DNA from: Candidatus Omnitrophota bacterium
GTDB lineage: Bacteria; Omnitrophota; Gorgyraeia; Gygaellales; Profunditerraquicolaceae
DNA: 59,192 nt
Assembly: GCA_035402765.1 (NCBI GenBank)
Contig: DAONDX010000008.1
Span: 1-59,192, forward strand
Direction: 5' to 3'
Program-made: the position numbers and the translations under genes
Shown: in pieces, positions 3,184 through 50,172 of the stretch
How positions within the stretch are numbered: position 1 is the stretch's first letter
How the letters are laid out: every line of letters starts with the position of its first letter
The notes under the pieces: generated by a model
The model's input: only the letters and a program-made list of their open reading frames with translations
The model's database searches: none
Told to the model about the DNA's origin: nothing

Positions 3184-4473
3184 TTATTCCTTTTCAAATT
3201 TATTAACTACCAGCCCGGAAAGCACCTTGGGATAAAAATAGGTGGATTTAGGAGGCATTTTATTACCGCTTACCGCGATATTAATAATCTGCTGGATCTT
3301 AACCGGGTTTAGAAAAAAGGCGACATTTAAAGGGTCGCTATCTACCTCATCCATTAATTCATAGGGATCCGGGCTATACTTAATAGTCGATAAATTATTT
3401 AAATCCAAATTAAGAATGCTCTTCAATACCAAATAATTCAAAATCGCCACATCCAGGATGCGGTACTCTTTAGGCTTATCCGCAATTAATTTATCCAGCA
3501 TCTTAACGTTTTTAAGCCTTAAAAGAAAATATTTTTTATCTTTATACAGTCCCAACAAATGCTCTGTGCAACCGGCTTTTTCCATTAAAAAGAAAAAGCG
3601 TGCCCGGTCTTTCAGCTGGTCAACATCAAAATATTCTTTGGCCTTTACGATAAAATCATCTAAATTCAGGCGCGTATCTAATTTAAGCAAGCGGTGGATT
3701 GGTAAAATAGACAACCCGCGATAATCAGTATTCGTAAAATATGCCAGGCAAAAATTAAAATCTTCATCACCGGTAAATTGGCTACCCAGTTTTTCCCGCA
3801 TTAAATCCCGGTAAGCGCAGGAAACCTCATAGCGATGGTGGCCGTCGGCAATAAACATATTTTCATTATTCATACTGGATTCAATGGTCTTAAGCAGATC
3901 CGGATCAGTCAACCGCCACAACTTATGCACGGTTTTTTCATCATCAACAACTTCGATAAAAGGCTTAAGCGCCGGGATTTGCTTTTGGAAGATACGCTGA
4001 ATAATGCGTTTTTTATCCAGAAAAATTATAAAAATCGGGCTCAGGTTAGCTTTGACCTGTTTGACCAGCTTAAATCTGTCCAGTTTTGCGGCATTATGGG
4101 TATTTTCATGCCCAAAAACAGCAGAACTTTTTTCATCTCCAAGCCGCAGCAAAGAAATAAACCCCAGGCGTGTTTTCTTCTCACCCCGGATAACATATTG
4201 CTGGCTGTAAAAATATACAGCCGGCTGTTCATCCTGGATCAGCACATCCTCTTTAAGCCAATCCCTAAAGATCATTGCCGCCCGGCGATACTTATCATCA
4301 GCCGAAGAATCTTTAGCTAAAAGAATATGGATAAAATTATACAGTGAGCGCTCATGGAGGATATCCTGAGCTTGAGAGGAAATTACATCATATGGCGGGC
4401 AGATCACCTGCTTAAAATCCCGGATCTTTTCCGGATTATACACTACTGCTTTAAAAGCTTTTGTTTTGCTCAT
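3184..4473 (-). CDS. DUF1015 family protein (ParB/Srx-like fold)
   Basis: PPYDVIS, GHENT, NLSPIF, FIADGHHRY, ILPIHR, KMPPKSTYFYPKVLSGLV motifs typical of DUF1015. Confidence 0.88.
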   Translation of the reverse strand: MSKTKAFKAVVYNPEKIRDFKQVICPPYDVISSQAQDILHERSLYNFIHILLAKDSSADDKYRRAAMIFRDWLKEDVLIQDEQPAVYFYSQQYVIRGEKKTRLGFISLLRLGDEKSSAVFGHENTHNAAKLDRFKLVKQVKANLSPIFIIFLDKKRIIQRIFQKQIPALKPFIEVVDDEKTVHKLWRLTDPDLLKTIESSMNNENMFIADGHHRYEVSCAYRDLMREKLGSQFTGDEDFNFCLAYFTNTDYRGLSILPIHRLLKLDTRLNLDDFIVKAKEYFDVDQLKDRARFFFLMEKAGCTEHLLGLYKDKKYFLLRLKNVKMLDKLIADKPKEYRILDVAILNYLVLKSILNLDLNNLSTIKYSPDPYELMDEVDSDPLNVAFFLNPVKIQQIINIAVSGNKMPPKSTYFYPKVLSGLVVNKFEKE

Positions 4474-4866: not shown

Positions 4867-6030
4867 CTAACGAAATGATTTTTTAAATTTATCCGTAAAA
4901 CTTTCCCGGTTACCTAAATTTTCACCATTTAAGCGGGCAAATTCCTCGATGAGCTGTCTTTGCTGGGCCGTCAACTTTGCGGGAATTTCAATATCCACTC
5001 TTACCAGTTCATCACCGATATCCCGGGAATGCAAATCCGGCATACCTTTACCTTTAAGGCGGAAAGTTTTGCCGCATTGAGTGCCCGCGGGAATTTTCAT
5101 CATTAACTTGCCATCTAAAGCCGGAACCTCAACCTCGCCTCCCAAGATCGCCTTAGCTAAACTTATCGTTACCGCTGTAGCGATATCATTGTGGTGACGC
5201 TGGAAAATATCATGCTCTCTTACTTCGATCACTACATATAAATCACCCCGGCTATTCAATCCCGCCTCGCCTTCGCTGCGCACGCGAAGCTGAGAGCTAT
5301 TATCCACTCCGGCAGGAATCTTAACCTTTATTTTTTTAGTAACCTTAACCCGCCCTTCGCCCCGGCAATCCGGACAGGGAGATCCGACAATGGAACCCTC
5401 TCCGCCGCAACGCGAACAAGTTTGAGCCAATTGAAAGAACCCGTTAGAAACCACGGTTTTGCCCTGCCCTTTACATTGAGAACAAACCGTTCTTTTAGTG
5501 CCGGGCTTAGCTCCGCTGCCGGAACAAGTAGGACAAGTTTCATAACGCGGCACGGTAATAATTTTCTCCACGCCCTGCGAGGCTTCCTCCAGCGAAATTT
5601 CAATGGCGATTTGTAAATCCCGGCCCCTTCGGCGGGAACCTGACGGCCGGGCCTGCCTTGAACCGGAGACATCAAATCCTAAATCACCGAAAAGTTCTTC
5701 GAAAATACTCCCCCCGCCGCCGGATCCGCCGCCCATCCCCCTGAAAATACTGCTAAAATCGGCCCCCTTAAAGATATCTTCCTGAGCATATTTCTGGTCG
5801 ATACCGGAATGCCCGTATTGATCATAGAGATCGCGTTTAGAAGAATCCGAAAGCACAGCATAGGCTTCCGAAATTCCTTTAAATTTTTCTTCCGCGGCTT
5901 TTTTTTCACTTTCCGGCACGCGGTCCGGATGAAACTTCATCGCCATCTCACGATAGGCCTTTTTGATTTCATCCAGACTTGCGCCCCGGGGAACCCCCAG
6001 TATCTCGTAATAATCACCCTTAACAGACAT
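4867..6030 (-). CDS. dnaJ: Chaperone DnaJ
   Basis: J-domain with HPD, G/F-rich region, four CxxCxGxG repeats, C-terminal domain. Confidence 0.97.
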
Positions 6031-6032
6031 GT

Positions 6033-7931
6033 TTATTTTTTACCGCCTTGGTCTTCTTCCTTATACTCCGCGTCAATGATGTCTTCATCTTTTTTTCCGG
6101 TTTCCTTAGGCTCCGCAGCATCATCCGGCTGGCCAGCGGGTTCCGCCTGACCGGCATTTTGAGACTTTTGCTGTTTAGCCGCTGCCTGTTTATAAATTTC
6201 TTCCGCCAGCTTATGGGAAACTTTGGTCAACTCTTCCATACCATTCTTTATACGGTCAATATTTTTATCTTTGATCGCATTCTTTAAATCATTGACCTTA
6301 GCTTCAATATCAGCACGTTCAGTTTGACTAACTTTATCCCCGTAATCCTTTAAGGATTTTTCGGTGGCATAGATCAAATTATCCGCTTGATTGATCGTTT
6401 CAATTTCTTCTTTTTTCTTGGCGTCATCAGAAGCGAATTTTTCTGCATCCTTAACCATTTTATCAATCTCTTCTTTAGACAATTTTTTAGGAGCGCTAAT
6501 GCGGATAGATTGTTCCTTACCGGTGCCCAAATCTTTGGCGGAAACATGCACAATCCCGTCACGGTCAATATCGAATTTGACTTCGATCTGCGGCACGCCG
6601 CGCGTAGCAGCAGGAATTCCGACTAAATCAAATCTTCCTAACTCCACGTTATCATCGGCTAAAGGTCGCTCACCTTGAAGAACCCGGATAGTGACTGCGG
6701 TCTGATTATCCGCCGCGGTTGAAAATATCTGGCTTTTTTGGGTAGGAATCGAAGCGTTCCTCTCAATCAATTTGGTATTAACTCCGCCTAAAGTTTCAAT
6801 ACCTAAAGAAAGCGGAGTAACATCCAAAAGCAGTACATCTTTAACTTCTCCGGTAATGATCGCTGCCTGGACTGCCGCCCCTAAAGCTACACACTCCATC
6901 GGGTCGACTCCCCGCTCAATTTTCTTACCTACATATTCTTCCACAAATTTTTGCACAATCGGCATCCGGGTAGGCCCGCCAACCATGATAATCCGGTCAA
7001 CCTCTTTAGAGGTCAGCTTGGCATCATTCAACGCCTGCTCCATAGGATGTTGGCAGCGCTGGATAATCGGACCGACCAGATCCTCCAATTTTGCCCGGGT
7101 AATGGTCATCGCTAAATGCTTGGGCCCGGTAGCATCTGCGGTAATAAAAGGTAAATTGATATCTGTACTCACCGTAGAAGATAACTCAATCTTGGCCTTT
7201 TCCGCTCCTTCACGCACCCTCTGCACCGCCATTTTATCATTCATCAGGTCGATGCCTGTTTCACGTTTAAATTGCCCGACAATATATTCAAGCAAAACCC
7301 GGTCCATGTCTGTTCCGCCCAACTGTGTATCTCCGCTGGTTGACTGCACATGGAATACCCCCTGGGCCATCTCCATGATCGTAACATCCAAAGTACCGCC
7401 ACCTAAATCAAAAACCATAATTTTTTGTTCTTTATCCGCTTTCTCTAAACCGTAAGCTAAACAGGCAGCCGTAGGCTCATTGATAATACGCAAAACTTTT
7501 AAACCCGCGATCTCACCGGCATCCTTGGTCGCCTGCCGTTGATTATCGTCAAAATACGCCGGGCACGTAATTACCACATCTTCCACCTTATCTCCCAGAT
7601 AAGCCTCCGCATCCTGTTTTATTTTTTGCAGGATAAAGGCGGAAATCTGCTGCGGGGTATATTCTTTACCATGGGCTTTAAATTTAAAATCTGTACCCAT
7701 TTTACGTTTAGCCGCCTGAATTGTGCCTTCGGCATTAATCGCTGCTTGGCGCCTTGCCGGTTCTCCCACCAAGCGCTGGCCATCTTTAGTAAAAGCAACA
7801 TAAGATGGAAAAGCTTTACCTGAAGCAATTCCCGCCCCTTCAGCTGAAGGTATAATTACGGGCCGACCGCCCTCCATAACCGCAGCTGCCGAGTTGGATG
7901 TTCCTAAGTCAATCCCGATTACTTTTGCCAT
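6033..7931 (-). CDS. dnaK: Chaperone DnaK (Hsp70)
   Basis: [50 protein letters not shown] tail. Confidence 0.98.
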
Positions 7932-30886: not shown

Positions 30887-32461
30887 TTAATTAAGTTTAA
30901 GCGCCTTCAGCTGCGCTGAATAATATCCGCAAGTAAGCGAATCCAATGAAGCGGTCAACTCCTCTAATTTCAGCTGTTTTTGGAACCTTTTATTCCTGTC
31001 TTCCAAGGCTAAATTATCCAGCTCGCTTCTGACTCTTAACCGCTCAAAATAAAGTTTGTTCACCTGATCTAAAATATCATCCCGCAGCTCCACCAACAGT
31101 TTCGAGCGCACATCAATGCTAGTCTGAGCGTCATTCCAAATTAAATCACTTAAATCCCAAGTTAACGAGATATCCCAATCGATATTATCCCGTCCCCGGT
31201 GCAAAACATCATCATCGCTTTTAGTAGTCGATCCCCCTTCCCAATGCCATAAATCAGTGCTATTTCTCTCCAGGCCCAGATTAACCTGCGGAAGAAATGC
31301 CTTTTTAGCAGCATCTTTACGCCATTGCGTTATTTTCTCCGGGCTTACTTCAGCATATCTTATTGCTGCTTCCTGAACATCTCTGATATTAGGTTCGGAC
31401 CTAAGATATTCCTCAAATAAAGTTGAACCTGTAAAGTTGCCAAGATTAGTTGAGTTTGATTTAAATATTCCTTCTTTACAACAGGCATAGATATTATTCG
31501 AATCATCCAGAACAAGATAATTCAGATTACTTGAGGCCAAACCAAAACTTATCTCTAACCAACGTTGATCCGAATAGAGAAAAATTCCTGATTCAGTAAG
31601 TGCGATCACCTGCGAATTATCGGTTAGACAAAACATCTTTATATCAGAATTTAATAAACCATATTCAGTTAACTTTTCCCAGCTTTTACCCTGATTAAGG
31701 CTTTTATACATACCTTTTGAGGAAGAAAAATACAATAGGTTAATATTCTTTCTATCCGATCCGACAAAACGAATACCAAACTTCTCTCCAACTGATTCCG
31801 ATTCCTCAATAACAACATCTGCTTCAGGTTCTTGCCCGGCAGAACTCACAAATATCCTTTCCCAGTTTTGTCCGTAATCATTCGATTTAAATATCCCGCT
31901 TGCGGCAGCTAAATAGATAATTTCATTATCGCTAAAAACAGTATCTATATTAAATATGCCGATTTTACCTATACCAGCTTCTTGCCTGTACCAACTGCGG
32001 CCGTTATCCCTGCTGATGAACAATCCGGCTTTGGTGCCCGCAAATATCGCTTTGGCGCTAATCCCCATAGCAATACACTGGTTTTCCTGATCGTTTTTAC
32101 CCTGAAAAATCCTTTCCCATTTTTGTCCGGAATCATTACTGCGATATACCCCGTTATCTGTAGCCGCATAAATAATCTTAGAATTGTTTTTATCAGCGGA
32201 CAATACGTTAATATTACGCCGCTGTCCCCTTATCGAAAAAACCCTGCGCCAGCTTTTACCGGAATTTTCACTCTTAAATATATTCCCGGATTGCCCCGCA
32301 AAAATAATTTTTCCGTCTTGAGAATTAACCAAAAGAGCCTGAAGGTTAAGATTCTCCCTGCTAATCTCCTCCCAAATAAAATCCTGCGCTAAAACCACTC
32401 TCGCCATAAAACTCAAACCAATTATTAATACGCCCATCTTAATTTTACGCATTTTTGCCAC
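30887..32461 (-). CDS. Exported Asp-box (BNR/YCF48-like) beta-propeller protein with helical C-terminal domain of unknown function
   Basis: Signal peptide; repeats KSENSGKSW, RSNDSGQKW, SRDNGRSW, KSNDYGQNW, KSLNQGKSW; C-terminal ...LTWDLSDLIW...VNKLYFERLR...LDSLTCGYYS. Confidence 0.75.
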   Translation of the reverse strand: MAKMRKIKMGVLIIGLSFMARVVLAQDFIWEEISRENLNLQALLVNSQDGKIIFAGQSGNIFKSENSGKSWRRVFSIRGQRRNINVLSADKNNSKIIYAATDNGVYRSNDSGQKWERIFQGKNDQENQCIAMGISAKAIFAGTKAGLFISRDNGRSWYRQEAGIGKIGIFNIDTVFSDNEIIYLAAASGIFKSNDYGQNWERIFVSSAGQEPEADVVIEESESVGEKFGIRFVGSDRKNINLLYFSSSKGMYKSLNQGKSWEKLTEYGLLNSDIKMFCLTDNSQVIALTESGIFLYSDQRWLEISFGLASSNLNYLVLDDSNNIYACCKEGIFKSNSTNLGNFTGSTLFEEYLRSEPNIRDVQEAAIRYAEVSPEKITQWRKDAAKKAFLPQVNLGLERNSTDLWHWEGGSTTKSDDDVLHRGRDNIDWDISLTWDLSDLIWNDAQTSIDVRSKLLVELRDDILDQVNKLYFERLRVRSELDNLALEDRNKRFQKQLKLEELTASLDSLTCGYYSAQLKALKLN

Positions 32462-32552
32462 CTCCTACGATAATTGACGTAAAAGGCTAAAAAATCTAAC
32501 AAAAAAAACACCTTTGGACAAAAGGCGCCTTTTGGTCTCCTAAAACCTAAAC

Positions 32553-42831: not shown

Positions 42832-42863
42832 TACACTACTATCTCTATCAACATAGTAGAGTA
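42832..42863. promoter_or_regulatory. Candidate Rrf2 operator
   Basis: TACACTACTAT-N10-ATAGTAGAGTA inverted repeat (10/11) overlapping the -10 and transcription start. Confidence 0.65.
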
Positions 42864-42887
42864 TAACCTAAAAAAAATTATTGTCAA
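42860..42887 (-). promoter_or_regulatory. Promoter of the Rrf2-met/cys operon
   Basis: TTGACA-16 bp-TATACT. Confidence 0.7.
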
Positions 42888-42903: not shown

Positions 42904-45099
42904 TTAAAGGTTATCCAAATCCAGCAATTCCTTCCGGATATTTTCATATTCACCCGTATCTACAGATCTATATATTTCCTGCGCCTTGCGCCAGTATTCC
43001 CGGGCTAGGTTTTTCCTCCCTCTCTTCTTATATAACAAACCCAGGTTATAGTTCGCATTCGCCAAGTCCAGGCGGCTTTCAATCTGGCTAGCCAGCCCGA
43101 TTGATTGTTTAAAATAATCTTCGGCTTTTTCTAAATCATCAATTTCCAGATAAAGCTCTCCGATCATATTGAGCCCGCAGGCCAAATTTACTTTATTGTT
43201 ATGCTGTTGGTCTAATTTTAATCCCTTTGAATAATAATTTAAGGCGCTTTGGTACTGTTTTTGAAATAAGCAGATCTCTCCTAAATTAAAATAGCAATCA
43301 CTTAGTTCGTTATTCAATTTTAGCTTTTCGAATAGTTTTAAACTCTTACCGTAGAAATTTTTGGCTGCTTCATAATCATTCTTATTGGCAAAAACCAAAC
43401 CAATATCGAAATAATCACAGGCTAGATTCTTAATATTTTCATATTTATTCGGGTAATCCAGGTTAATGGCAACGCTCTTAGTTAACAAATCTAAAGCCTG
43501 ATCATAGTTGCCTTTATCGATATACCATACCGCTAATTTTCTCAAAGCCAAAGCCCGGTTTTGCTTATTGGGTAATTGTCTGCTTAAATTTATAGCTTTC
43601 TCATACAGCTCCTTAGCTTTTTCAAACTGCCCGTCATTCTGATAAAACCAACCTAATTTAATATATGCCTGAACAAGATGGGCCTGATTGTTAAACTTCT
43701 CGCTTTTAAAGACATAATCAAAATAATATTTGAGCGCTTTTTCCTTATTGCCCATACGCTCATAGGCATTTGCTATGATCGGATAAATTCCCAGATAATC
43801 CTGATCTTCATTAATTATCTGACGGCCTAAATCTATTACTTTCTGGTTATTGCCTTGGCGGTACTCTGAAGAAGCCTGAAGGAACAAATAAAGTTTAGTC
43901 GGGTTAATCTTGGGTAGCCAAAAGGCTAGAAAAATCAATACTCCCATAAAAATTAACGCTAAACCAATTTTCTGAGCGGCTTTTTTATAGATTAATTTCG
44001 CCTTAATTTTCGATTCTTTAGAATGCCCGAGCCGGAAAAAAATAAAACCGGGATCTCCATAAAGCAAATAATTTACCCAGTGTAAACTGGCCAGCCCTTC
44101 CTCTTTAACCAGCTTTAGCCTGGCTAACCGTAAAGACTCCCCCAGGCTTATTCCCGAAATAAGCCGAAAATAAAATTCCCGGGCAAATATCAAGCTGGCT
44201 TTATCTTCAATTTTACGGATCGCCCCTACATAATGCCTTACCCCGGCAAACAAAAAAGCACTGGCCATACCGTAATTAGTCCGTTGATATTCTGAATCGA
44301 TTAAAGCCGGGTTCACTTGCGCAGAATTGCAGGCATTAGAAAATACCAAGGCTGGCAGGGAACAACTTTGCCCCATCTTAAGTATGTCATCTGTCTTAAA
44401 AACCCCATCGCTTAATACCCAGCCGCATTCATTAATCTGGGACTTATCAAACTCACAATGACCGGCAAAATGCACAATATCGTAATCACAGATATTTTTC
44501 TTCACATAGTGCTTACCGATGTTAGTCGATTTAAAATCCAACTGAACTCTACGAGTTTTATGACTAAATTGATTTTTTATGTTTAAACCTTCAAGATAGG
44601 CGGATTTTAAATCACCGTTGGGATCGGCTAAAACCAGCATCTTTAAACTATCCGTTAAATTACGGTACTGCGGCGCGGTAGATTCACCTTTGCTGCGGAC
44701 TAACCTGCCCAGGCTAAATTTTAAACCTAAAAAATTTTCACCGTCGAAAATCAGCTCCCAGGGGATATGGATTAGCTCTTCATCTAAAAAGAGAGTTAAC
44801 GCGCAGGACTGGCTCTCCTTCAACTTTGTTTTAATTGAACGGCTCAGTAACTGATCCCAGAATAACTGGCCGGTTTTTTGCAGGTTCTTTAGCTGTTGCA
44901 GCTTAGATACCTGGTCTTTTGGTGAACAGTTTAAAACTCCCACCATCTCCAGGCTTAATTGTTTTAACTCGGCATAAGAAACCCCCACCTGGCTATAATG
45001 GCGCAAGGTGGGGGCGGTTTGCCCCTGATTAAACAGGCCCATTTTAAGCGAATCATCTTGTTGAAAAACTTCCAAGATTAGCGGATCAGGATGAAACAT
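42904..45099 (-). CDS. CHAT (caspase/HetF-like) protease + single TM helix + TPR array
   Basis: IPWEL, VHFAGH (His214), FSNACNS (Cys257), WVNYLLYGDP; TM about aa 378-395; many TPRs to the C-terminus. Confidence 0.9.
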   Translation of the reverse strand: MFHPDPLILEVFQQDDSLKMGLFNQGQTAPTLRHYSQVGVSYAELKQLSLEMVGVLNCSPKDQVSKLQQLKNLQKTGQLFWDQLLSRSIKTKLKESQSCALTLFLDEELIHIPWELIFDGENFLGLKFSLGRLVRSKGESTAPQYRNLTDSLKMLVLADPNGDLKSAYLEGLNIKNQFSHKTRRVQLDFKSTNIGKHYVKKNICDYDIVHFAGHCEFDKSQINECGWVLSDGVFKTDDILKMGQSCSLPALVFSNACNSAQVNPALIDSEYQRTNYGMASAFLFAGVRHYVGAIRKIEDKASLIFAREFYFRLISGISLGESLRLARLKLVKEEGLASLHWVNYLLYGDPGFIFFRLGHSKESKIKAKLIYKKAAQKIGLALIFMGVLIFLAFWLPKINPTKLYLFLQASSEYRQGNNQKVIDLGRQIINEDQDYLGIYPIIANAYERMGNKEKALKYYFDYVFKSEKFNNQAHLVQAYIKLGWFYQNDGQFEKAKELYEKAINLSRQLPNKQNRALALRKLAVWYIDKGNYDQALDLLTKSVAINLDYPNKYENIKNLACDYFDIGLVFANKNDYEAAKNFYGKSLKLFEKLKLNNELSDCYFNLGEICLFQKQYQSALNYYSKGLKLDQQHNNKVNLACGLNMIGELYLEIDDLEKAEDYFKQSIGLASQIESRLDLANANYNLGLLYKKRGRKNLAREYWRKAQEIYRSVDTGEYENIRKELLDLDNL

Positions 45100-45102
45100 A
45101 AA

Positions 45103-45807
45103 TTAGACCTTAACTTTTAAATCAATTACTGCCTCTCTTTGGCCTTGGCGGCTGACCTCGACTATATAATCGCCCGGTAGGACATTTTCAAAGAAACAAT
45201 CCCCGGAATCATTAACATAAGATTCCAGCTCCAGGCCTTCCTTAATTAAGGTAATCCGTAAATTTTTATCAATTTTCTGGCTTTGCTTGTCTTTGACCGT
45301 AATCGTCAAATTAAAACTCTGCGCGGATTTATTCTGAATTTTAGCTAATATCCTGATTTGCTGCAGGTCTTTTAGAATACTTATCTCTTCCTTAAACTCA
45401 TTGATCTTACGGCTACGCAGCACCGGAGCAGGCACCAGCTCCTGGCCAAGCAACACATCTCCGCTAGTCTGGATAATTTCCAAAGCTTTTTCTTTAAGCT
45501 TAATGAATATTTCTAATAAATTATCACGCCTATCCTGGCCGACTAACGCCTGGATCTTCTCAAGCAGCTGAGCAGGCACATCTAAACTTAAATGCGTCTG
45601 GATCTTAAGCTGGGTGGTTAAATACTCCGCACATAAATCGCAGCTTACTAAGTGCTTATGAATTAAATCTTTTTCGGGCAAAGAAAGCTTATCCTCAAGA
45701 AAACAAACCAGATCATCGGCATCCGGATGATCTTGGCCTTTAAAAAGGTGATCCGCCTTCCATTCCCGGTAAATATTTTTAACGATCTGCGCAAAATGAT
45801 CAGACAT
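45103..45807 (-). CDS. Zinc-binding (ZAS/zf-HC2) anti-sigma factor with soluble C-terminal beta-rich domain (start moved to MSDHF)
   Basis: H-x24-HLVSCDLC (HxxxCxxC); no TM segment; C-terminal FENVLPGDYIVEV beta-sandwich-like motif; downstream of an ECF sigma. Confidence 0.82.
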   Translation of the reverse strand: MSDHFAQIVKNIYREWKADHLFKGQDHPDADDLVCFLEDKLSLPEKDLIHKHLVSCDLCAEYLTTQLKIQTHLSLDVPAQLLEKIQALVGQDRRDNLLEIFIKLKEKALEIIQTSGDVLLGQELVPAPVLRSRKINEFKEEISILKDLQQIRILAKIQNKSAQSFNLTITVKDKQSQKIDKNLRITLIKEGLELESYVNDSGDCFFENVLPGDYIVEVSRQGQREAVIDLKVKV

Positions 45808-45849
45808 TTTTCTCCTTCTCACCTTAATAGACGTGTCACCTGAAGTAAT

Positions 45850-46449
45850 CTAACCTAAAAATCCTTTCTTTTTAAAACATTCTTGCAATTTCTGCAATAT
45901 CCTTCCCTTACGCATATCTACGGCTCCCCGGTTAATCTTTAAATATTCCTTGATCTGGTCTAAAGTTAACCCCTGGTTTAAAAACAGCTCCAAAAAAAAC
46001 TGCTCATCAGTTCCAAGCAAGTCGATACATTCACCCAGGGTTTTACGTTTATCCTGATCATTAAGGAACTCAATTGCCCCCGGGGCCAAATCCGCTATTG
46101 TGTCTCCTAAGCTAAAACCTTCCTCATTCTGGGTATCAATGGACAAAAGCGGCTTAAGTTTACGCAAATAATCAATGGTAAAGTTAATAGTAACTTGCCT
46201 TAACCAGCTGGCCAAAGAACAACCATTCTTGCCCCGGTAAGTAGCTAATTTCTTATAATTATCCTTAATTAAGACGTGAAAAATCTCTTGGAAGATATCA
46301 TCAACCTGCTCTGCGGAAAGGCTGTGGCCCTTAACCGATAAAACGCTATAGATATAGTTATAGATAAGGCGGGAATAACGCGAGATGAATTCAGCCCAGG
46401 CCTGTTGATCACCCTTCAGGCAGCTTTGCAGAAACGCTAGATCATCCAT
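45850..46449 (-). CDS. ECF sigma factor (start probably MDDLAF at 46449; the track gives 46488)
   Basis: Region 2 DIFQEIF...SWLRQVTINFTIDYLR; region 4 HTH LTLDQIKEYLKINRGAVDMRKGRI. Confidence 0.9.
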   Translation of the reverse strand: MDDLAFLQSCLKGDQQAWAEFISRYSRLIYNYIYSVLSVKGHSLSAEQVDDIFQEIFHVLIKDNYKKLATYRGKNGCSLASWLRQVTINFTIDYLRKLKPLLSIDTQNEEGFSLGDTIADLAPGAIEFLNDQDKRKTLGECIDLLGTDEQFFLELFLNQGLTLDQIKEYLKINRGAVDMRKGRILQKLQECFKKKGFLG

Positions 46450-46499
46450 CCAGGGCATTATAATACCAAAAACCCTGGAAATAAACAAAAAATTGACAT

Positions 46500-46549
46500 A
46501 AAACAGGGGGCGCTCCCTTTCCGCTTTGGATAGAAACGCCCCCTGTTTT
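46500..46549. terminator. Intrinsic terminator after hppA (T-tracts on both strands)
   Basis: Perfect 13-bp inverted repeat AAAACAGGGGGCG/CGCCCCCTGTTTT. Confidence 0.8.
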
Positions 46550-48912: not shown

Positions 48913-50172
48913 TTAGCGCTGAGAAATTTTAAGAACTTTGGTAATTTTATCGGCAGTAGAATTTAAAAGCAGTTTAACTAAGTAATATAAGAAAAATAAA
49001 AATCTCAATCTGTACAATAATAAAGTTTTAAATCCATACGGGGTTAATTCAAAAAACTTAGCAAACTGCTCCTGGGGGATATTAATTATTATGCTTACAG
49101 GTTCCCGGAAAGTATCATAAGCCAAAAAGTGGTGCCTTAAGAAAATACTGCTTATTTTTCTGCCGGGATCCCGGAAAGTATCCTTCAGGATAAACCTCCG
49201 GATCAAGCCCTGTTGATAATTTGGGCGGCTTAATCCCTTTAATATGGAATCCGGAACCCTGAGATTAAAGAAATATTTCATTTGGATAAGCCTAAAATAG
49301 AAACTAGCGCAGATGCGCCCGGATCTTGCTTGTTTTAGGATATAATCCCAATCCAAATCTTTATACTTAATTAATATTCTGGCAAAATCACAGGCAGTTT
49401 TTAAAGCCAGCGTGTTCCCAAAGCGGCGCAAGTGCAAGGCTAAACAAAAAAGCGTATCTTCGGCAGACAGCTCGTTAACTTCATTTTTTAACCCCGGAAT
49501 TCGAATTGCCCTCTTCCAGAGATCCGGCAATAAAGGATTCTCTCTGGGGTAATCCAACAACCAGTGTATTTCCAAAATAGAAAATATTTTTTGATTTTTC
49601 TTTTTGGTAAAAATTAGATGGTAGTTTCTTTTCCTCCAATAATCTTCATTTAATCCGCAAAGCTCCTTATGATAGCCAGAAGCCTCCGCCAACTTTTCTG
49701 CCCGGGGAAGTTGTTCTTTTTTTACTAAAATATCGATATCCGCCATCGGCCTTAACCCGGACAGGTTGCCGTAGAGCCGATCAATTAAAAACGCTGTGCC
49801 TTTCAACGGCAGCAAATCCACCCCTTGATCAGCAAAAATATCCGCAATTTTAAAAAATTCTTTTTCCAACTCAATCAGGCGGGACAACATAAAAAGATGG
49901 TAATTTCTAAGTTCTTCGATCTGGCGACCGGGAATCAAATGCAAATAGTCTTTAAAAAAGCTGTGGGCAAATGAAGACAAATCATGATAGGCTAAAAGTT
50001 TATTAAACTTATCCCAATCAAGCTCCTGCCCGCTAAGCATCTTTTTGATCTTCGCGGCATCCTCTCTTTCGTTTACTATCCATTGCGCAATCAAAAGAAC
50101 TAATCTTGCCTGCCGGCTGGTTAAATATTTATTCGGAGCGATTATCAGGTTATCATCTTGCATTTTTATCAT
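48913..50172 (-). CDS. Uncharacterised nucleotidyltransferase family protein (NTP_transf_5-like)
   Basis: LPLKGTAF, RPMADIDILV, LEIHWLL, LALH. Confidence 0.85.
   Translation of the reverse strand: MIKMQDDNLIIAPNKYLTSRQARLVLLIAQWIVNEREDAAKIKKMLSGQELDWDKFNKLLAYHDLSSFAHSFFKDYLHLIPGRQIEELRNYHLFMLSRLIELEKEFFKIADIFADQGVDLLPLKGTAFLIDRLYGNLSGLRPMADIDILVKKEQLPRAEKLAEASGYHKELCGLNEDYWRKRNYHLIFTKKKNQKIFSILEIHWLLDYPRENPLLPDLWKRAIRIPGLKNEVNELSAEDTLFCLALHLRRFGNTLALKTACDFARILIKYKDLDWDYILKQARSGRICASFYFRLIQMKYFFNLRVPDSILKGLSRPNYQQGLIRRFILKDTFRDPGRKISSIFLRHHFLAYDTFREPVSIIINIPQEQFAKFFELTPYGFKTLLLYRLRFLFFLYYLVKLLLNSTADKITKVLKISQR

Follow-up and report, generated by a model that had tools for sequence, protein, structure and literature searches.

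Does a membrane-spanning, caspase-like protein control the activity of a sigma factor in a member of the uncultured phylum Omnitrophota? This question is raised by three adjacent genes in the first 59,192 nucleotides (nt) of contig DAONDX010000008.1 (Candidatus Omnitrophota bacterium, assembly GCA_035402765.1); that whole stretch of DNA is called the window below. All three lie on the minus strand, in the order extracytoplasmic function (ECF) sigma factor, soluble anti-sigma factor of the zinc anti-sigma (ZAS) type, and a protein in which a CHAT domain is followed by one transmembrane (TM) helix and an array of TPR units. We propose that the TPR units, outside the membrane, would activate the cytoplasmic CHAT domain, which would then cleave the anti-sigma factor after Arg131 and so free the sigma factor, an account to which we give an even chance of being right. 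The genes are located as follows.

45850–46449, minus strand: ECF (group IV) sigma factor gene, 199 amino acids (aa), beginning MDDLAFLQ (revised start)
45103–45807, minus strand: soluble anti-sigma factor gene, 234 aa
42904–45099, minus strand: gene of the CHAT-TM-TPR protein, a HetF-like membrane protein of 731 aa

Open reading frame (ORF) analysis places all three genes at these positions, with 3 nt between the anti-sigma stop codon and the start of the CHAT gene in the window. A sequence-only reading of the window had described the same three tightly linked genes, and both the ORFs where it placed them and their Pfam and TIGR matches bear it out; its sigma end of the module, at 46488, had to be moved. 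That is where the sigma ORF opens (45850–46488), and the start was reset to the ATG at 46449 because an alignment of 52 orthologs and a −10 box 7 nt upstream both point to it. The anti-sigma ORF opens over 45103–45822, and its start was reset to 45807 because orthologs and called genes agree on that position. The sigma factor scores 75.6 bits with TIGR02937 (cut-off 42.9) and 28.3 bits with Sigma70_r2 (cut-off 24; E 1.6e-6), which makes it a member of the ECF (group IV) sigma factors; Sigma70_r4 matches at E 2.4e-4, and none of the named ECF equivalog models reaches its cut-off with the window sigma factor.

Conservation of the Triad

More than 100 full-length relatives of the CHAT protein, each about 731 aa long, share 58–79% identity with it, and a scan with one genome per species yielded 64 loci, the genes of which were assigned by ORF and phmmer analysis. 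The order sigma factor (approximately 200 aa), anti-sigma factor (approximately 234 aa), CHAT-TM-TPR protein (approximately 731 aa) recurs in all of the approximately 55 Omnitrophota loci with upstream DNA and holds down to 50% CHAT identity within the phylum. The triad is found once per examined Omnitrophota locus, and in approximately 40 species it is syntenic between hppA and sulfur-amino-acid genes. Upstream, hppA is absent from several loci (e.g., L042, L059, and L060), and Rrf2 lies downstream only in the closer half of the species, being absent from the more divergent ones. Since hppA and Rrf2 come and go, the triplet is kept independently of its flanks, and this is also the outcome of the neighborhood survey that the sequence-only reading had proposed: the triplet of ECF sigma factor, ZAS anti-sigma factor, and CHAT/TM/TPR protein is conserved and its flanks vary. 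Two loci were left out of the counts. In L031 (1–5792) a single 947-aa ORF joins the hppA and sigma frames, and the CHAT gene is broken into parts of 55 and 623 aa; in L057 a run of N occupies the sigma/anti-sigma junction (about 5180–5290); these irregularities are probably assembly errors or pseudogenes.

The association extends beyond Omnitrophota and beyond the TPR architecture. In a Desulfobacca-like lineage, a homologous sigma factor and a ZAS anti-sigma factor (HLVTCDLC) are followed by a TIR-CHAT-TM protein with a CsgG/LpoB-like C-terminal domain; there is a 4-nt overlap between the anti-sigma gene and the CHAT gene of this TIR lineage, and the arrangement is kept over a series of 67–100% identity. 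A profile of the CHAT-TM core retrieves 1,903 representative clusters at E ≤ 1e-30, and nearly all of the best 150 representatives have one TM segment about 150–200 aa past the catalytic His. At the C-terminal end, members of this family differ: some have TPR arrays, short or very long, and others CsgG/LpoB-like domains. A class III cyclase or a TIR domain is present at the N-terminus of certain members. Scanning metagenomes with non-Omnitrophota members yielded 80 loci, and both catalytic-type motifs, by strict patterns, are present in 63 of these 80 members. Family-specific hidden Markov models were applied to the 59 loci with at least 1.3 kb of upstream DNA (cyclase or CsgG type): 39 have both a sigma and an anti-sigma gene, 8 have a sigma gene alone, and 12 have neither. 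Linkage to a sigma/anti-sigma pair spans several CHAT-TM architectures. In L064, L067, and L068, which encode cyclase-CHAT proteins and a CHAT-TPR protein of Planctomycetota, there is no sigma or anti-sigma gene within 6 kb.

The recurrence of the triplet in more than 100 independent loci is far beyond chance, and the triad is very probably one conserved, co-inherited module. Coupling between a sigma/anti-sigma pair and CHAT is frequent and ancient, not obligatory.

Additional genes accompany some of the relatives. In L064 (8134–10218) and L067 (8163–10145), which encode cyclase-CHAT-TM-CsgG-like proteins and lack the sigma pair, the next gene encodes an exported protein with TPR, Glucodextran_B-like, and CsgG/LpoB-like regions. 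Because its C-terminal domain is similar to the one that the CHAT protein exposes on the outside, it may act in the periplasm as a partner of the receptor. Loci of the TIR-CHAT lineage encode, directly before the sigma gene and overlapping it, a conserved protein of approximately 560–600 aa with no Pfam match (L065, 1691–3493; L069, 774–2468; L072, 2641–4329). It has several hydrophobic segments in its C-terminal half and may be a fourth component of the TIR-CHAT variant. In L065, L072, and L073 its gene is preceded by that of a FadL/TodX-type outer-membrane channel.

An Invariant Arginine in the Anti-Sigma Linker

If the CHAT protein acts on the anti-sigma factor, the latter might be expected to carry a recognizable site. 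Two elements of the anti-sigma gene bear on this point.

45364–45471, minus strand: conserved linker, aa 113–148, GDVLLGQELVPAPVLR before and SRKINEFKEEISILKD after the predicted cleavage site between Arg131 and Ser132; Arg codon at 45415–45417
45631–45654, minus strand: ZAS zinc motif H52-x3-C56-x2-C59; fourth ligand H27 at 45727–45729

The AlphaFold2 (AF2) model of the anti-sigma factor consists of a helical N-terminal domain, a region of low confidence (pLDDT <50 over residues 68–132), and a beta-sandwich at residues 141–232 with pLDDT 76–90. By column entropy, the best-conserved stretch of the whole protein is the linker between the two domains (aa 113–148, GDVLLGQELVPAPVLRSRKINEFKEEISILKD), at 0.93 bits compared with about 1.6 for the ZAS core and for the beta-sandwich. 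Residues 106–132 are nevertheless predicted to be disordered (pLDDT <50). Arg131 is kept in 60 of 60 aligned anti-sigma sequences, the median identity of which to the window protein is 20%, and its context is [ILV]-R-[GS]: I, V, or L precedes it in 50 of the 60, and G or S follows it in 52. Since an aligner can force an invariant column, an alignment-free check was added; 43 of the 60 sequences have [ILV]R[GS] at a distance of 49–79 residues beyond the last ZAS Cys, compared with 7.6 ± 2.5 (maximum 16) in 500 shuffles. A conserved, exposed site of the form aliphatic-Arg-small is what the substrate of an Arg-specific protease of the caspase fold would be expected to look like. An invariant Arg in a highly conserved linker that is predicted to be disordered lends real support, on comparative grounds, to the notion that the protease cuts the anti-sigma factor. 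We speculate that the beta-sandwich serves as a docking domain.

The protein that carries this linker appears to belong to the ZAS class. Its zinc motif in the window is HLVSCDLC (H-x3-C-x2-C), and among 60 diverse family members the ligands are kept as C/H27 in 59, H52 in 57, C56 in 57, and C59 in 60; the pattern C/H27-x24-H52-x3-C56-x2-C59, which fits the H/C-x(23-26)-H-x3-C-x2-C motif characteristic of the class, falls in the N-terminal helical domain by alignment (n = 60) and AF2. Among the profile searches that the sequence-only reading had proposed, those with CHAT and with Sigma70_r2/r4 gave matches, and that with zf-HC2 (PF13490) left the window anti-sigma factor at 12.0 bits (E 0.24), below the gathering score of 22.2 bits; 31 of 36 family members match this model at E ≤ 1, the best at 4.8e-7. 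A search of the family profile against PDB chains returned for this region only the N-terminal domain of DdvA (8rlz_A, E 0.016), RsiW, RslA, and ChrR. These matches, each weak singly yet mutually consistent, point to a ZAS-class domain. The ChrR match pairs residues 25–62 with ChrR 4–41, and a simple offset sets H27, H52, C56, and C59 opposite ChrR positions 6, 31, 35, and 38. ChrR resembles the window protein in the ligand spacing H-x24-H-x3-C-x2-C and in joining an anti-sigma domain to a C-terminal domain. A Foldseek search with the anti-sigma model returned generic Ig-like or YEATS/GAE beta-sandwiches, none at E ≤ 0.001, and no Csx30. The anti-sigma factor has no signal peptide and, as the sequence-only reading had it, no TM helix (highest Kyte-Doolittle 19-residue mean 0.81).

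The CHAT-TM-TPR Protein and Its Topology

For a cut at Arg131 to occur, the protease domain and the soluble anti-sigma factor would have to meet. The relevant features of the third gene are the following.

44053–44880, minus strand: CHAT caspase-like domain, aa 74–349, a full-length PF12770 match
44458–44460 and 44329–44331, minus strand: catalytic His214 and Cys257, at the ends of the VHFAGH and FSNAC motifs
43912–43968, minus strand: single TM helix, aa 378–396, Kyte-Doolittle 19-residue mean 2.49, probable N-in orientation
42907–43902, minus strand: TPR array, aa 400–731, predicted extracytoplasmic sensor

The match to PF12770 covers profile positions 1–289 of 289 (E 1.8e-26, 93.7 bits, cut-off 24), and this full-length match together with the His-Cys dyad makes the protein a member of the Pfam CHAT family. 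Neither His214 nor Cys257 varies among 29 Omnitrophota sequences or in a mixed alignment of 25 sequences in which the TIR and cyclase types are also represented. D207, D299, and E115 are invariant too and are candidate residues of an acidic S1 pocket. The CHAT profile finds marginal matches among PDB sequences (8tl0, E 0.007; DdvA, 0.062; Csx29, 0.33), and the CHAT core is remote in sequence from all solved CHAT structures.

The TM helix is the sole hydrophobic segment, and the basic stretch KAKLIYKKAAQK directly precedes it; the 15-residue flanks contain five K/R before and two after the helix. Beyond it, TPR_12, TPR_2, TPR_8, and TPR_1 match at E 1e-27 to 1e-35 over about aa 400–730, the AF2 confidence of the array is mostly pLDDT 81–97 (about 55 at the extreme C-terminus), and a Foldseek search with this model finds LGN/Pins-type TPR superhelices as best matches.

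The CHAT domain most probably faces the cytoplasm and the TPR array the outside. This N-in topology is favored because the CHAT protein has no N-terminal signal peptide and positive charges precede the helix, because relatives bear TIR or cyclase domains, which need cytoplasmic NAD or nucleoside triphosphates, on the CHAT side, and because relatives bear CsgG/LpoB-like domains, typical of the periplasm, across the helix from CHAT. Since the CHAT domain would then be cytoplasmic and the anti-sigma factor is soluble, the two would share a compartment. The dyad, the basic stretch followed by one TM helix and a long TPR array, and the topology had all been called in the sequence-only reading, and each call has stood: the dyad by its invariance in the alignments, the helix and array by the hydrophobicity and TPR family matches, and the topology by the lysine-rich N-side flank, the lack of a signal peptide, and the domain fusions of relatives.

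Two Promoters and a Candidate Regulon

The locus has two promoters, not a single operon promoter, and a further copy of the second kind leads to a candidate target gene elsewhere in the window.

46457–46462, minus strand: sigma-70-type −10 box TATAAT, 7 nt before the sigma ATG at 46449
45828–45854, minus strand: ECF-type promoter GTTAGATTACTTCAGGTGACACGTCTA, overlapping the sigma stop codon and preceding the anti-sigma and CHAT genes
32474–32500, minus strand: second copy of the ECF-type promoter, GTTAGATTTTTTAGCCTTTTACGTCAA, with one mismatch, about 22 nt before the ATG at 32452
30887–32452, minus strand: gene of a secreted BNR/Sortilin-Vps10-like beta-propeller of 521 aa, candidate regulon member

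The first promoter serves the sigma gene. Of 52 orthologous loci, 50 have a TATAAT-like box that ends 6–9 nt ahead of the sigma start, the distance being 7 nt in 33 cases; an upstream TG accompanies it in 40 of these 50. The geometry appears to be that of a housekeeping promoter giving a leaderless or nearly leaderless sigma mRNA. The space before the sigma start (46447–46465, minus strand, and its equivalents in L001–L063) is too short for a Shine-Dalgarno sequence; the anti-sigma and BNR genes, by contrast, carry GGAG-type ribosome-binding sites. One metatranscriptome run yielded just two perfect contigs of 151 nt, one within the sigma gene and one across the end of hppA and the intergenic region, too little to define a transcription start or co-transcription.

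ECF promoters are typically bipartite, with an AAGAAA-type −35 and a CGTC-type −10 element (compare SigW). A search upstream of the sigma gene only had indicated a locus without an ECF-type promoter; this was overturned by the motif at the sigma/anti-sigma junction. There, GTTAGAT-N14-CGTCTA is the unique exact match in the window (0.00 expected by chance), and of 56 Omnitrophota sigma/anti-sigma junctions, 51 carry the motif, always with the 14-nt spacer. A related motif, G[TC]AAGAAA-N14-[CT]GTCTA, is present in 24 of 46 non-Omnitrophota junctions (0.14 in shuffles); the putative −10 element and the spacing of these distant promoters are unchanged, and their putative −35 element has drifted. 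The sigma factor of the triad most likely reads GTTAGAT-N14-CGTCTA, because the motif travels with the sigma family.

Allowing at most one mismatch, the window contains two matches to the motif (0.04 expected), a number that no shuffle reached. The second precedes the propeller gene, 13 kb from the triad, the product of which has a signal-peptide-like N-terminus and matches Pfam Sortilin-Vps10 (E 6e-15) and BNR. It is 45% identical to its motif-bearing ortholog in L042, and exact copies of the motif precede a propeller ortholog just downstream of the triad in L042, L048, L053, and L063, which are among the more divergent Omnitrophota. The propeller may belong to the regulon or may even act in the periplasm as a partner for the TPR domain. 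The layout as a whole suggests that the sigma factor would be made constitutively, that its inhibitor and the protease would depend on it in a negative feedback, and that the propeller gene is a candidate for the regulon. A terminator-like hairpin also precedes the propeller gene in the window (30887–32500 region).

Boundaries and Surroundings of the Module

The flanking genes in the window encode an H+-PPase (hppA) and Rrf2, and each contributes one boundary of the module.

46500–46549, minus strand: intrinsic terminator of hppA, a hairpin followed by a U-run, upstream boundary
42860–42887, minus strand: sigma-70-like promoter of the downstream Rrf2 gene, TTGACA-16-TATACT, 11 of 12 consensus matches, downstream boundary

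The terminator hairpin folds at −34.2 kcal/mol, with a z-score of −7.09 against 200 shuffles, and analogous GC-rich hairpins are visible in most orthologous loci; this z-score and the 11/12-match site uphold the two bounds that the sequence-only reading had proposed. Its statement that the window holds no cas genes or array stands for the array, as no array-like repeats were found in the window, and is limited for the cas genes, of which none was encountered, though not every window ORF was scanned for them. In PADLOC, the three proteins of the triad match no defense family, generic TPR models aside.

Upstream of hppA, the window carries a gene for an NTP_transf_5 "uncharacterised nucleotidyltransferase" (48913–50172, minus strand; E 2.6e-37), where L001 and L003 have a small unannotated ORF and nitroreductase, thioesterase, and radical-SAM genes. 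As gene content thus differs between the window and L001/L003, the neighborhood upstream of hppA is variable. In 1–59192, every plausible gene of at least 150 aa is on the minus strand; only two plus-strand ORFs (3835–4320 and 6772–7455) reach that length, and both are nested in minus-strand ORFs. GC skew is negative across the whole window (−0.07 to −0.24), and together with the gene orientation this suggests that the whole 59 kb belongs to a single replichore in which genes very strongly favor one strand.

Comparison with Known Systems

The closest described architecture is that of HetF, not of Csx29. In HetF of Anabaena sp. PCC 7120, a CHAT domain is followed by one TM segment and by a TPR region described by the authors as periplasmic (PMC8406250; PMC9457339). 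PatU3 is cut by the soluble CHAT domain of HetF at the bond between R117 and S118, and mutation of R117 blocks processing (PMC9457339). Like the window protein, HetF has an N-terminal CHAT domain with a His-Cys dyad, a single TM helix, and C-terminal TPR units, a likeness of described architecture and shared Pfam CHAT membership. Furthermore, the residues on either side of the HetF cut in PatU3, Arg and Ser, are the same pair as those at the predicted site here. The CHAT region of HetF is longer (aa 1–555, catalytic Cys295, as against aa 1–377 and Cys257 here). [quoted passage not shown]

In Myxococcus xanthus, DdvS/DdvA couples an ECF sigma factor and a ZAS anti-sigma domain to TPR-CHAT across the membrane (PMC11506125; PMC6061681). 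The N-terminal domain of DdvA is the best, though weak, PDB match of the window anti-sigma factor. DdvA is a single chain consisting of a cytoplasmic ZAS domain, a TM helix, and a periplasmic TPR-CHAT part; it controls a CBASS-CRISPR-Cas island, and autoproteolysis followed by RseP cleavage has been proposed for it (PMC11506125; PMC6061681). Unlike in DdvA, the 234-aa anti-sigma factor of the window is separate, soluble, and without a TM helix, the CHAT domain is on another protein at its probable N-in, cytoplasmic side with only the TPR units outside, and there is no defense context.

In the type III-E system Craspase, Csx29 (TPR-CHAT) cleaves Csx30 and so relieves inhibition of CASP-sigma (PMC10028731). 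[quoted passage not shown] Csx29, however, is soluble, has its TPR units N-terminal to CHAT, and is activated by RNA-bound Cas7-11, whereas the window protein has the reverse order and a TM helix, and in approximately 55 species the flanking genes are housekeeping genes. Csx30 is not a ZAS anti-sigma factor, and no Csx30 homology was found among PDB chains in the anti-sigma profile search or by Foldseek with the model. With the model of the III-E RpoE-like sigma factor (NF041236), the window sigma factor scores 28.9 bits against a cut-off of 100, in a partial match at aa 53–125. The sequence-only reading had seen in the triad a candidate for kinship with the Craspase output module; taken as homology, this fails on the sigma score, the lack of Csx30, the Csx29 match at E 0.33, and the reversed domain order. 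It had overlooked the HetF architecture and the two-promoter layout.

Two further comparisons concern mechanism. The type III CRISPR system CalpL-CalpT-CalpS comprises a SAVED-Lon protease, a soluble anti-sigma factor, and a sigma factor of the ECF-like type (bioRxiv 10.1101/2024.05.08.593097). It is alike in having three parts (protease, anti-sigma, sigma) and in being triggered through a signal-binding domain on the protease, and unlike in that the protease is of the Lon type, its SAVED domain binds cytoplasmic cA4, and the system is CRISPR-associated. In the classical systems (RseA with DegS, RseP, and ClpXP; RsiW), an anti-sigma factor's signal-dependent proteolysis likewise frees an ECF sigma factor, but the anti-sigma factor spans the membrane and is degraded in a site-1/site-2 cascade; in the triad the protease would span the membrane and one cut would suffice for the signal to cross it.

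A literature search for CHAT or caspase together with ECF and anti-sigma factors found only the DdvA, Craspase, and type III-B work and a general review of non-canonical ECF sigma factors, and neither CHAT nor caspase is named in the main text of the paper that reclassified ECF sigma factors (PMC7826278). Within the literature searched, a split system of a HetF-like membrane CHAT protein, a soluble ZAS anti-sigma factor, and an ECF sigma factor is undescribed. Protease-gated anti-sigma/sigma switches are a known theme, and the Omnitrophota triad would belong there as an analog of Craspase, not as a member of it.

Proposed Mechanism and Alternatives

We propose the following sequence of events. 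The sigma gene would be transcribed constitutively from the housekeeping-type promoter as a leaderless mRNA, as the promoter geometry suggests, and the soluble ZAS-type anti-sigma factor would hold the sigma factor inactive, as its zinc motif, its matches to anti-sigma domains, and the adjacency of the genes suggest. The CHAT-TM-TPR protein would reside in the inner membrane, where an extracytoplasmic cue acting on the TPR units would activate the CHAT domain on the other side. The CHAT domain would then cut the anti-sigma factor after Arg131, in the linker between the sigma-binding domain and the beta-sandwich; by analogy, the cut anti-sigma domain would be lost or degraded and the sigma factor released. 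The free sigma factor would read GTTAGAT-N14-CGTCTA (candidate target promoter sequence GTTAGATTACTTCAGGTGACACGTCTATT), and sigma-driven expression of the anti-sigma factor and the CHAT protein would provide negative feedback and reset the switch. Further target promoters may be that of the propeller gene and perhaps others elsewhere in the genome. The anti-sigma factor is assigned as the substrate because of the invariant Arg, the co-inheritance of the genes, and the precedents of HetF, Csx29-Csx30-CASP-sigma, and CalpL-CalpT-CalpS.

Several findings weigh against this proposal. The known substrate of HetF is not an anti-sigma factor, so that the analogy carries over Arg specificity and not the target. 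The invariant Arg might instead be a binding or structural residue. The AF2 confidence for the CHAT domain is low to moderate. The pairing of the sigma factor with the junction motif derives from their co-occurrence only. The anti-sigma and CHAT genes lie behind an ECF-type promoter, and CHAT could thus be a mere output of the sigma factor. Finally, the 12 of 59 distant CHAT-TM loci without a nearby sigma or anti-sigma gene show that the CHAT-TM core can use other partners.

The last two points lead to the alternative that survives best, which we nevertheless consider unlikely: CHAT is the output of the sigma factor and not its trigger. The sigma/anti-sigma pair would be self-contained, and CHAT would cleave other substrates, such as envelope or division regulators; the anti-sigma factor would be inactivated by its own beta-sandwich sensing a cytoplasmic cue, by zinc/thiol chemistry, or by a general protease. 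Behind the junction promoter the expression of CHAT is indeed probably sigma-dependent, the substrate of HetF is a regulator of division and differentiation, soluble two-domain ZAS anti-sigma factors with their own C-terminal sensor exist (ChrR, the match to which is weak here), and the 12 distant loci dispense with the pair altogether. This alternative, however, leaves unexplained why the anti-sigma and CHAT genes remain adjacent or overlapping over more than 100 loci while sensors and flanks are exchanged, and why conservation in the anti-sigma factor peaks in a disordered linker, the invariant [ILV]-R-[GS] of which suits an Arg-specific protease of the caspase fold. As for thiol chemistry, the first zinc ligand in Omnitrophota is His, as in ChrR, not Cys, as in RsrA.

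A non-proteolytic partner switch, which we regard as improbable, would have CHAT bind the linker as a pseudo-substrate and sequester the anti-sigma factor at the membrane, freeing the sigma factor without a cut; in a variant, CHAT would hold the sigma/anti-sigma complex at the membrane. The conserved linker and the beta-sandwich could form a binding interface, and separase is held by the pseudo-substrate inhibitor securin (cited in PMC11506125), but across a very large family the His-Cys dyad and the motifs around it are invariant, which argues for retained catalysis.

Most improbable of all is an anti-phage or conflict system analogous to Craspase, CalpL-CalpT-CalpS, or DdvS/DdvA, one that senses infection and switches on a defense regulon or a toxic protease, a role that the sequence-only reading had entertained: although all characterized trios of CHAT/Lon protease, anti-sigma factor, and sigma factor are CRISPR-linked or control a CBASS-CRISPR-Cas island, and relatives have TIR or nucleotide-cyclase domains fused to the CHAT core, the Omnitrophota triad is found once per examined locus, vertically conserved (50–79% identity), and syntenic beside housekeeping genes across the phylum, has no PADLOC defense match and no repeat array in the window, has a secreted BNR propeller as its one nearby regulon candidate, and turns its sensor domain outward, not toward cytoplasmic nucleic acids.

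Implications

Bacteria use ECF sigma factors as a major route for signaling across the membrane, and the known modes of activation of these factors are cascade proteolysis of a membrane anti-sigma factor, partner switching, phosphorylation, and conformational or redox change. If our proposal of cleavage after Arg131 is correct, a membrane-spanning caspase homolog that cuts a soluble anti-sigma factor would add a mechanistically simple mode to this list. The CHAT proteases, widespread in bacteria, would gain an everyday signaling role outside CRISPR and defense, and HetF, Craspase, and DdvA would be joined in one functional theme. The proposal makes explicit predictions, namely the site between Arg131 and Ser132, the catalytic residues, and the target promoter, and the hypothesis is therefore testable.

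We tentatively extend this proposal, with somewhat less than even confidence, to a large class of single-pass "receptor caspases" in multiple phyla, the dedicated substrate of which would be a soluble ZAS anti-sigma factor cut after one invariant Arg. One helix would link a cytoplasmic CHAT domain to an exchangeable sensor (TPR, CsgG/LpoB-like, or other), sometimes with an added TIR or cyclase domain. If this is true, transmembrane ECF signaling would be possible by one-step proteolysis, with no site-1/site-2 cascade, and HetF would be a relative that was re-targeted to a cell-division regulator. In Omnitrophota, the triad would then be a core, phylum-wide switch, the regulon of which could be read from GTTAGAT-N14-CGTCTA promoters, and the system would offer a first handle on gene regulation in this uncultured phylum.

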